From NCBI RefSeq assembly GCF_016903815.1, contig NZ_CP069973.1: a stretch of DNA of 64,000 bases; one strand, 5' to 3'. This DNA comes from Escherichia coli. Lineage in GTDB: Bacteria > Pseudomonadota > Gammaproteobacteria > Enterobacterales > Enterobacteriaceae. Made by a program: the position numbers and the translations under genes. Shown piece after piece: positions 28,430 to 30,329 of the stretch. The stretch's first letter is position 1, and each line of letters starts with the position of its first letter. The notes under the pieces are model-generated. The model was not told the DNA's origin. It ran no database searches and saw only the letters and a list, made by a program, of their open reading frames with translations.

Positions 28430-28774
28430 CATCTTACCCTGTGCACCAAAAGCAAAAACTTATCGACGCGGGTTTGAAACTGATTGCAACCGCAAAAATG
28501 CCTGATGCGCTACGCTTATCAGGCCTACGCCATCTCTGCAATATATTGAATTTGCGTGCTTTTGTAGGCAGGATAAGGCGTTCACGCCGCATCCGGCATG
28601 AATAAAGCGCACTCAACAATCTGAAACCCGCCAGTTTACGCTGCCGGGTTTTCGTTAAAAGAGGTGAAACTGACCAATAAGCCGCTTTCTTTTGAGTATA
28701 GTGTCGTGGACAGTCATTCATCTTTCTGCCCCTCCAAAAGCAAAAACCCGCCGAAGCGGGTTTTTACGTAAATC
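28430..28774. repeat. tandem degenerate repeats of the rnpB 3'-terminal/terminator sequence plus REP elements
   Basis: aggtgaaactgacc(a/g)ataagccg...gtcgtggacagtcattcatct...ccaaaagcaaaaac(cc/tt)...cgggttt occurs in successive diverged copies (28441-28500 partial, 28661-28770, then genuine rnpB 3' end); REP at 28500-28600. Confidence 0.8.
28741..28768 (-). terminator. rnpB intrinsic terminator
   Basis: Minus-strand hairpin acccgcttcggcgggt followed by ttttt immediately 3' of M1 RNA. Confidence 0.8.
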
Positions 28775-29151
28775 AGGTGAAACTGACCGATAAGCCGGGT
28801 TCTGTCGTGGACAGTCATTCATCTAGGCCAGCAATCGCTCACTGGCTCAAGCAGCCTACCCGGGTTCAGTACGGGCCGTACCTTATGAACCCCTATTTGG
28901 CCTTGCTCCGGGTGGAGTTTACCGTGCCACGGACTGTTACCAGCCGCGCGGTGCGCTCTTACCGCACCCTTTCACCCTTACCTGATCCCGCTTGCGCGGG
29001 CCATCGGCGGTTTGCTCTCTGTTGCACTGGTCGTGGGTTTCCCCCCCAGGCGTTACCTGGCACCCTGCCCTATGGAGCCCGGACTTTCCTCCCCTCCGCC
29101 CGTCTCCCCCGAAGAGGACGACGACGAAGCGGCGACTGTCTGGTCAGCTTC
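28775..29151 (-). ncRNA. rnpB: RNase P RNA (M1 RNA), 377 nt
   Basis: Reverse complement reads GAAGCTGACCAGACAGTCGCCGCTTCGTCGTCGTCCTCTTCGGGGGAGACGGGCGGAGGGGAGGAAAGTCCGGGCTCCATAGGGCAGGGTGCCAGGTAACGCC...GGTCAGTTTCACCT, the canonical M1 RNA. Confidence 0.95.
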
Positions 29152-29158
29152 GGCGCGC

Positions 29159-29187
29159 AGTATAGAGGGTTTGCGCGCCCTTGTCAC
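29159..29187 (-). promoter_or_regulatory. rnpB promoter (-35 GTGACA, 17-bp spacer, -10 TATACT, GC-rich discriminator)
   Basis: Minus-strand gtgaca-N17-tatact-gcgcgcc-G(+1) immediately upstream of M1 RNA 5' end; -35 overlaps the garK stop codon. Confidence 0.7.
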
Positions 29188-30329
29188 CCCGCGTTGCGCA
29201 TTCCAATCGCCAGTGTCGCGGCGATATTACGTGAAGCACGGTAAATATTGTCATAAGCCCCGCGGAATGCTTCGTCCAACGTACCAATACTGGTCAATAC
29301 GCTGAAGACCGCATCAATGCCATGCTGATGTACAACGCCAACATCATTGGTCAGGCTACCCGCAATGCCAATCACCGGTTTATTGTACTTTTTCGCCACG
29401 TTTGCGACGCCAATCGGAACCTTGCCGTGTATACTCTGGCTGTCAATACGCCCTTCACCGGTGATCACTAGCGTACAATCGTGAATATGTTCCTCCAGAT
29501 TCAGCGCCGTAGTGACGATTTCAATACCACTTTTCAGTTCCGCACCAAGAAACGCCATTAGCGCCGCGCCCATACCACCCGCAGCTCCTGCGCCGGGGAC
29601 ATCTTTCACATCAACATGCAGCGCTTTTTTAATGACATCGGCATAGTGAGAGAGGTTATTGTCCAGCTCAACAATCATCGCTTCACTGGCTCCCTTTTGT
29701 GGGCCAAAGATGCGCGATGCACCGTTATCGCCCACCAGCGGATTGGTGACATCACAAGCGACGCGAATGACGCAATCTTTTAAGCGCGGATCGAGGCCGG
29801 AAATATCAATATCATTCAGAGTATTAAGACTACCGCCGCCAAAACCAATTTCATTGCCGTTGGCGTCGCATAATTTCGCCCCCAGCGCCTGTACCATGCC
29901 TGCACCGCCATCATTTGTAGCGCTACCGCCAATGCCGATAATAATGTTTGTCGCGCCGCTCTCCAGCGCCTGCAGGATTAACTCGCCTGTGCCGCGTGAA
30001 GTGGTCACGAGTGGATCGCGTTTTTCCGCAGGTACCAGCTCCAGCCCACTGGCCGCCGCCATTTCAATAAACGCGGTTTTGCCATCGCCGGAGATCCCCC
30101 AACTGGCATTCACCTTCTCGCCCAGCGGCCCTGTAACCCAGGCGTGACGTTCGGAACCCTGGGTGGCTGCAATCATCGCTTCCACCGTTCCTTCGCCACC
30201 GTCGGCAACCGGAACAGAAACGTACTGTGCATCAGGAAAAATTTCCCGAAATCCTTTTTCTATCGCCTGCGCAACCTCGCTGGCAGATAAACTTTCTTTA
30301 TAAGAGTCTGGGGCGATTACGATTTTCAT
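29184..30329 (-). CDS. garK: glycerate 2-kinase
   Basis: ORF 29184..30410; MKIVIAPDSYKESLSASEVAQAIEKGFREIFPDAQY... (381 aa). Confidence 0.9.
   Translation of the reverse strand: MKIVIAPDSYKESLSASEVAQAIEKGFREIFPDAQYVSVPVADGGEGTVEAMIAATQGSERHAWVTGPLGEKVNASWGISGDGKTAFIEMAAASGLELVPAEKRDPLVTTSRGTGELILQALESGATNIIIGIGGSATNDGGAGMVQALGAKLCDANGNEIGFGGGSLNTLNDIDISGLDPRLKDCVIRVACDVTNPLVGDNGASRIFGPQKGASEAMIVELDNNLSHYADVIKKALHVDVKDVPGAGAAGGMGAALMAFLGAELKSGIEIVTTALNLEEHIHDCTLVITGEGRIDSQSIHGKVPIGVANVAKKYNKPVIGIAGSLTNDVGVVHQHGIDAVFSVLTSIGTLDEAFRGAYDNIYRASRNIAATLAIGMRNAG

Follow-up and report, generated by a model that had tools for sequence, protein, structure and literature searches.

Why does the end of rnpB, the gene for M1 RNA (the RNA of ribonuclease P, RNase P), recur downstream of the gene in Escherichia coli, and do the extra copies do anything? 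We considered this question in a 64,000-nt stretch of the E. coli contig NZ_CP069973.1 (RefSeq assembly GCF_016903815.1), hereafter the window, in which the repeats lie between rnpB and yhaC. The region is the E. coli rnpB locus garK-rnpB-yhaC: an 806-nt query covering 28385–29190 is 100% identical to E. coli strain 7/2, where the order is garP-garL-garR-garK-rnpB, then the convergent genes yhaC and yhaB, and then tdcR. Essentially all complete E. coli genomes have rnpB and garK annotated where this query matches. The extra copies are probably non-coding tandem duplicates of the rnpB end and its terminator T1, acting at most as back-up terminators. Both the textbook gene and its flanking repeat, described for K-12 four decades ago, are already known. 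To this can be added that the array is a copy-number-variable locus, with 0–8 units across 5,426 E. coli genomes, and that it is common to several Enterobacterales families, always with a linker that inactivates the strand pairing in helix P4 of M1. The conservation of this linker across genera is the one loose end.

The rnpB gene itself matches Rfam RF00010 over its full length (model positions 1–367) with 318.6 bits, against a gathering score of 100, and an E-value of 1.6e-104, and the match has exactly the coordinates at which the initial annotation had placed a 377-nt M1 gene on the minus strand. That annotation had also reported one nearly complete and one partial copy of the rnpB 3' end downstream, and a repeat search and a three-way alignment confirmed both. 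The 20-mer GATGAATGACTGTCCACGAC, which starts at M1 nucleotide 329 and includes the 3' strand of P2, occurs exactly twice, at 28823..28804 and 28722..28703, with 0 copies expected (100 shuffles). The repeat search returned a perfect 22-nt pair at an offset of 101 nt and a 60-nt pair of 75% identity at an offset of 113 nt, and a partial third copy at 28446–28475 is 83% identical over 30 nt to the T1 region at 28734–28763. Tandem Repeats Finder reported no array, because there are only ~2.5 copies and these differ by insertions and deletions.

The extra units are not faithful copies of the gene end. After the 20-nt block (28722..28703), unit 1 has a 19-nt linker, ACTATACTCAAAAGAAAGC (28702..28684), in place of the M1 sequence AGAACCC, followed by a copy of the P1 3' strand, GGCTTATTGGTCAGTTTCACC (28683..28663), and a hairpin (28651..28624) with a truncated U-run. 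It is a chimera, in which a type-B hairpin is joined to the type of junction that ends the array. Of the P1 3' strand, the partial unit retains a remnant (ATCAGTTTCA); its hairpin has a ruined 3' arm, its T-run (GTTTTTGCTTTTGG) is intact, and it also has a spacer (TGCACAGGGTAA). The 15-nt vestige that follows the partial unit is 35 nt away from the stop codon of yhaC, and its sequence closes the array in 10 out of 10 E. coli loci inspected. In the extra units, a 12-nt insertion and a C-to-G change (CCCGG to AGCGG or CGCGG) break the P4 3' strand, so that these units cannot provide an alternative 3' end for M1. We detected a single RF00010 match in this region of the window; the units span only the last 49 nt of M1, with the P4 strand disrupted. 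Additional rnpB genes can thus be ruled out, since the extra units have no RF00010 match of their own. No other Rfam family was found within the units at permissive thresholds. The coordinates of these and the surrounding features are listed in Table 1.

Table 1. Features of the garK-rnpB-yhaC locus (positions in the window)
Feature	Position	Strand	Basis or detail
rnpB, 377-nt M1 RNA (RNase P RNA, class A)	28775..29151	-	RF00010; annotated in identical and related genomes
rnpB proximal sigma-70 promoter (predicted)	29159..29187	-	-35 GTGACA 29187..29182, 17-nt spacer, -10 TATACT 29164..29159
Repeat unit 0 (101 nt): M1 nt 329-377, 3' trailer, T1, spacer ending GGAGGGGCAGAAA	28723..28823	-	Repeat search and alignment
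T1, intrinsic terminator: AAAAACCCGC-TTCG-GCGGGTTTTT, then GCTTTTGG	28734..28767	-	Fold; flanking A-run and T-run
Repeat unit 1, variant type, 113-nt register	28722..~28612	-	Repeat search, folding, alignment
REP, central segment with near-consensus IHF-like site ATTCAATATATTG, REP (BIME/RIP-type)	28500..28597		Between unit 1 and partial unit
Partial decayed unit	28434..28487	-	Similarity to T1 region; alignment; fold
Vestigial 15-nt start of a further unit (GATGAATATCTACGG vs GATGAATGACTGTCCACG)	28419..28433	-	Sequence reading and alignment
yhaC	27197..28384	+	Convergent with rnpB; AT-rich, GC 26-34%; bounds intergenic array
garK (glycerate 2-kinase), coding sequence	29184..30329	-	Open reading frame list; annotation of identical strain 7/2 mapped to window

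The number of units varies between E. coli strains. Ten loci were compared. In the nine without an insertion sequence (IS), rnpB and yhaC are separated by a spacer of 106–613 nt, and the ten strains have 0, 1, 2 or 3 full variant units. There are three in K-12, W and H1 (613 nt), two in a BL21-derived strain (507 nt) and one in this window and in an O26:H11 strain (390 and 394 nt), all with a pair of repetitive extragenic palindromic (REP) elements in the spacer. GTEN_23 and EC-10 carry one unit and no REP pair (227 and 219 nt), and O157:H7 C1-057 has neither (106 nt), its T1 being joined straight to the terminal spacer. For a population survey, we used a variant-specific 60-mer that cannot seed on rnpB itself, and it detected 8,284 copies in 3,674 of 5,426 complete E. 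coli genomes, with 1–8 copies each (median 2), all of them chromosomal. About one-third of the complete genomes have no variant unit at all. Hairpins of type A (CCCGCTTCGGCGGG) and type B (CCCGCCAGCGTAAACCGGCGGG) occupy different positions in different strains, forming mosaic combinations, and units share their trailer, hairpin and spacer types with unit 0 of their own genome. Mosaic units and the gain or loss of whole units are the traces expected of unequal recombination and of conversion among the units.

The initial annotation had regarded the repeats as known architecture rather than a new element, and this is borne out by K-12, which carries orthologous units at the same locus: a 101-nt interval is followed by 113-nt intervals, with three full extra units and a partial one at the same position. 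The two strains share the garK-rnpB-yhaC locus, the unit, the 101/113-nt register, the REP pair and the terminal partial unit; they differ in that K-12 has three full variant units, whereas this strain has one, with a longer type-B hairpin. Reed and Altman are said to have described in PNAS in 1983 a 113-bp sequence repeated ~3.5 times in K-12, with terminators and small open reading frames (ORFs). Our literature search returned no paper on the repeats, on rnpB-yhaC or on garPLRK-rnpB, and a paper on rnpA49 suppressors contained nothing relevant.

Beyond E. coli, a scan of species-representative genomes with the 20-mer matched at least 120 loci. Among the matches listed, 14 loci had two or more rnpB-end copies 96–126 nt apart: 13 belong to Enterobacterales by name, and one is an unclassified metagenome-assembled genome (MAG) of enterobacterial-looking sequence. 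None of the ~80 other proteobacterial loci among these matches had more than one rnpB-end copy. Within the same set, extra copies were found in E. coli, E. albertii, Citrobacter youngae, Cedecea, Pluralibacter, Pantoea, Erwinia mallotivora, Pectobacterium betavasculorum, Brenneria and three further enterics; the copy in E. albertii, Brenneria and the MAG amounts to no more than a truncated unit start. Seven extra units were counted in Salmonella Senftenberg, three in K. pneumoniae and one in S. Kentucky; in K. aerogenes, a second unit is present only as its truncated start. A full RF00010 match was found exactly once at each of 17 related loci. The distribution is patchy, and congeners such as Pectobacterium zantedeschiae and Citrobacter werkmanii often lack the array. 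Every extra unit, whatever the genus, has a 19–20-nt linker instead of AGAACCC and reads xGCGG where M1 has the P4 3' strand CCCGG. In trailer, hairpin and spacer, the units agree with unit 0 of the genome they are in and differ from one genus to the next, a case of concerted evolution.

In one Citrobacter youngae assembly, the array is split between the ends of two contigs; it was evidently the repeats that broke this assembly, and copy numbers from draft genomes are therefore unreliable. Matches labelled as plasmids (0.35–5.4 Mb, with garK-rnpB) were typed as non-mobilizable and are chromosomes or pieces of chromosomes, so a plasmid-borne array was discarded. The same applies to a phage-borne array: OR851195.1, 'Salmonella phage S.Kent 1-2-1', is an unverified 2.5-kb record of Salmonella chromosomal DNA; it includes the 3' end of rnpB, a single variant unit and the sequence upstream of tdc.

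The arrangement of the locus, its variable copy number, its occurrence across genera and the lack of ORF conservation were observed here; a role limited to termination, a history of recombination and the absence of another function are what we infer. An old tandem duplication would have copied the last 49 nt of M1 plus T1, and one copy would then have gained the 12-nt insertion and the C-to-G change, abolishing P4 pairing. Recombination or gene conversion would keep the copies similar to unit 0, and unequal recombination would add and remove units. The sole likely activity of the extra units is that of putative additional bidirectional terminators, which would shield the convergent yhaC from the strong rnpB promoter. 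Tandem intrinsic terminators also follow the highly expressed stable-RNA operon rrnB (T1-T2). The two arrangements have in common serial hairpin and U-run signals downstream of a strong promoter and facing a convergent gene; unlike those of rrnB, the extra terminators here come from duplicating a part of the gene itself and are degenerate in this strain.

The primary terminator, T1, has a predicted fold of -19.4 kcal/mol (z -4.5), with UUUUUGCUUUU directly after the hairpin, and from its A-run and T-run flanks it looks bidirectional. A consensus terminator scan did not list it, flagging a single site inside rnpB, probably because the A5/T5 flanks lengthen the stem. Most rnpB transcripts would stop at T1, and RNase E and exonucleases then trim the 3' trailer from pM1 RNA. 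Small RNA (sRNA) expression vectors have employed the rnpB terminator as a functional terminator (PMC4606813). Each copy had been credited with a terminator-like hairpin of its own, which is only half true. Unit 1 does have a hairpin (-19.2 kcal/mol, z -3.5), but its U-run is lost, with only UUU before CAGAUUG, because the type-B hairpin is fused to the terminal junction. The partial unit has kept its T-run, but the 3' arm of the hairpin has mutated from GCGGG to ATAAG and folds no better than shuffled sequence (z +0.64). The internal units of K-12 have both hairpin and U-run. In this strain, the back-up role would be largely lost, unit 1 being without a U-run and the partial unit without a hairpin, and T1 alone looks like a working terminator.

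The linker is the part of the units that weighs against their being simple duplicates. It differs at 0 of 19 positions between E. coli and Salmonella and at 2 of 19 between E. coli and Klebsiella, whereas four-fold degenerate sites of the adjacent garK differ at 55–56% and the trailer and spacer of the same units at 34–40% (Fisher p 0.001–0.04 vs the linker; the contrast is not significant for genera more distant than Klebsiella). Judged by these comparisons, the linker is better conserved than a purely vestigial sequence should be, and its conversion donor cannot be rnpB. Moreover, the true P4 strand is found in no extra unit across ~15 genera, which hints at selection on permitted unit content. 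If the linker is under selection, this would suggest that the handling of RNase P RNA transcripts has an unrecognized layer, or that the rnpB end is used as an insertion site. Along these lines, the units could be an ancient selected element of Enterobacterales, giving read-through RNAs that bind Hfq or pair with M1, or offering islands a safe docking site beside an essential gene; we consider this unlikely, though not negligible.

The first of these possibilities can be stated more specifically. Variant units would be functional RNA elements, included in read-through RNAs that carry the linker and the copies of the P2 and P1 3' strands; by binding Hfq, or by pairing with the 5' end of M1/pM1 (nt 1–19), these RNAs might alter the folding, processing or turnover of M1. 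The linker has an A-rich, ARN-like run (AAAAGAAAG), and a hairpin and U-tail follow ~45 nt later. The level of linker conservation in E. coli, Salmonella and Klebsiella, well above neutral expectation, agrees with such a function, as do the persistence of arrays in many Enterobacterales genera although they are easily lost, the fact that all extra units are of the variant type, and a P1 3' strand that tracks the species' own rnpB (for example, GGCTTAACGGTCAAC in Pectobacterium). This last match is, however, equally explained by gene conversion from rnpB, and the conservation signal fades past Klebsiella. Within E. coli, linker position 1 (G/A) and a CCC/CTC triplet vary. Neither a consensus scan nor inspection by eye found a promoter-like site inside the units on either strand. 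For 14 units from 10 taxa, RNAalifold predicted a fold of -5.1 kcal/mol in which none of the 12 pairs had changed on both sides, and no covariation-supported fold was found beyond the terminator; given this lack of compensatory changes, a structured non-coding RNA is not supported for the variant unit. Variant units are also missing from about a third of E. coli genomes and from many species, and the element is therefore dispensable. On balance, a functional read-through RNA seems rather doubtful, and duplicated gene ends with at most a terminator activity remain the preferred reading.

Islands that integrate at the ends of transfer RNA (tRNA) and transfer-messenger RNA (tmRNA) genes leave a similar trace, and the copies could accordingly be attachment-site scars, with the rnpB 3' end as the integration site. 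Integration would duplicate the gene end, later loss of the island would leave a short array, and the attP of an integrase-bearing element would contain GGCTTATCGGTCAGYTTC. As with tRNA and tmRNA attachment sites, a partial copy of the 3' end of a stable RNA lies downstream of the intact gene, and in Cedecea such copies flank an island: ~3 kb separate a variant unit cut after the P1 3' strand from a distal, diverged unit with a terminator, and a 21-nt direct repeat, GGCTTATCGGTCAGCTyCAAC, lies on both sides. Downstream of rnpB or of the last unit, the junction AAAACAATACGTTGGTGTGTCTCAGG is shared by Enterobacter MGH24, Erwinia psidii, Erwinia mallotivora and Enterobacter Bisph1; the arrays of Klebsiella, Pectobacterium and E. 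coli SCPM-O-B-8794 end just past the P1 strand; and the AT-rich yhaB-yhaC, not found in Salmonella, adjoin the array in the window. However, no integrase was seen in the Cedecea island, and in the window there is none between rnpB and tdcR and no distal rnpB-end copy beyond the array. Unlike attachment-site duplications, the copies in the window are in tandem, have their own terminators and enclose no island. The units are strictly head-to-tail at a constant period, with no island remnants between them, copy number shifts by whole units, and integration leaves the shared 12-nt insertion unexplained. We regard scars as improbable.

In Cedecea sulfonylureivorans, the island (4560–7560 of the locus) encodes a PAAR-motif protein and a toxin with PAAR, S-type-pyocin and colicin-E3-like cytotoxic domains. 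The junction AAAACAATACGTTGGTGTGTCTCAGG...GATACACCAACGGTTG of several Enterobacter and Erwinia species is a long inverted repeat directly behind the P1 3' strand, where it takes the place of the usual terminator; it had no Rfam family match.

Reed and Altman in 1983 also reportedly raised the possibility that the repeats encode small peptides, which would be basic. In each E. coli unit, an ATG is preceded at a distance of 8 nt by a Shine-Dalgarno-like GGAGG, and the ORF from that ATG has 95 codons in the window (28721..28434) and 38 in K-12. The 113-nt period is not a multiple of three, and the reading frame therefore changes from unit to unit. Read from the ATG of GATGAAT, the ORF runs for only nine codons before a stop in Enterobacter Ag1, Cedecea and Pectobacterium, a 1-nt deletion shifts its frame in Klebsiella, and the GGAGG is not present outside Escherichia. 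In the window, the ORF runs through REP sequences. It has no Pfam or NCBIfam match, and no gene is annotated at the repeats in any genome inspected. The early stops, the Klebsiella frameshift and the lack of a family match led us to rule out a coding role, which we consider highly improbable. In the MG1655 record NC_000913.3 (3268300–3270800), locus tags skip from b3121 (yhaC) to b3123 (rnpB), and b3122 is not in the current annotation; going by the tag numbering alone, it may be an ORF in the repeat region that was once called and later withdrawn.

The REP elements, which the initial annotation had described as interleaved with the copies, are present as a single inverted pair (28571–28597 and 28500–28524), placed only between the second and third copies. 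This pair around a segment resembling a site for integration host factor (IHF) is typical of bacterial interspersed mosaic elements (BIMEs) of the repetitive IHF-binding palindromic (RIP) type, and the IHF site is putative, as read from the sequence. As in other BIMEs, the REPs are multi-copy in the genome: further copies occur elsewhere in the window, and a query covering them matches a median of 35 places per E. coli genome. Partial, sub-threshold Rfam matches to the REP-derived families ES036 and naRNA4 were also obtained. Here, in contrast to the duplicated segments, the element is a passenger within the array and not part of the repeat unit. In E. coli GPEC1040, IS621 (IS110 family) is inserted in the distal REP of the rnpB-yhaC pair, splitting GCGTAG|GCCTGATAAG.

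Upstream of the gene, a promoter scan found the predicted rnpB promoter GTGACA-17-TATACT, with 10 of 12 consensus matches. Its -10 element ends 7 nt ahead of the rnpB start site at 29151, with a GC-rich GCGCGCC (29158..29152) in between. The garK stop codon TGA (29186..29184) lies within the -35 hexamer, an overlap already proposed from the sequence and upheld here. This promoter layout recurs in 12 other Enterobacterales loci, and the garK stop is embedded in the -35 element in Escherichia, Salmonella, Citrobacter, Klebsiella and Pluralibacter. From the garK stop codon to the rnpB start there are 32 nt, in which the consensus scan predicted no terminator-like site. Since the garK stop is inside the -35 element and no such site intervenes, read-through from garK may enter rnpB, and the earlier suggestion to that effect is plausible. 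Transcription of rnpB would start at this promoter, with some garK read-through entering in addition. Upstream-started rnpB transcripts have been described and are degraded by RNase E.

On the far side of the array, yhaB and yhaC (26636–28384, plus strand) have a GC content of 26–39%, compared with ~50–62% for garK and rnpB, and Pfam searches returned no match for either protein. Both genes are missing between rnpB and tdcA in Salmonella, and they look like acquired DNA lodged beside the rnpB 3' end. Within the 3' end of yhaC, the antisense strand carries a promoter-like site, TTTAAA-16-TATAGT (28374..28347, minus strand), which is probably a chance match in AT-rich DNA.

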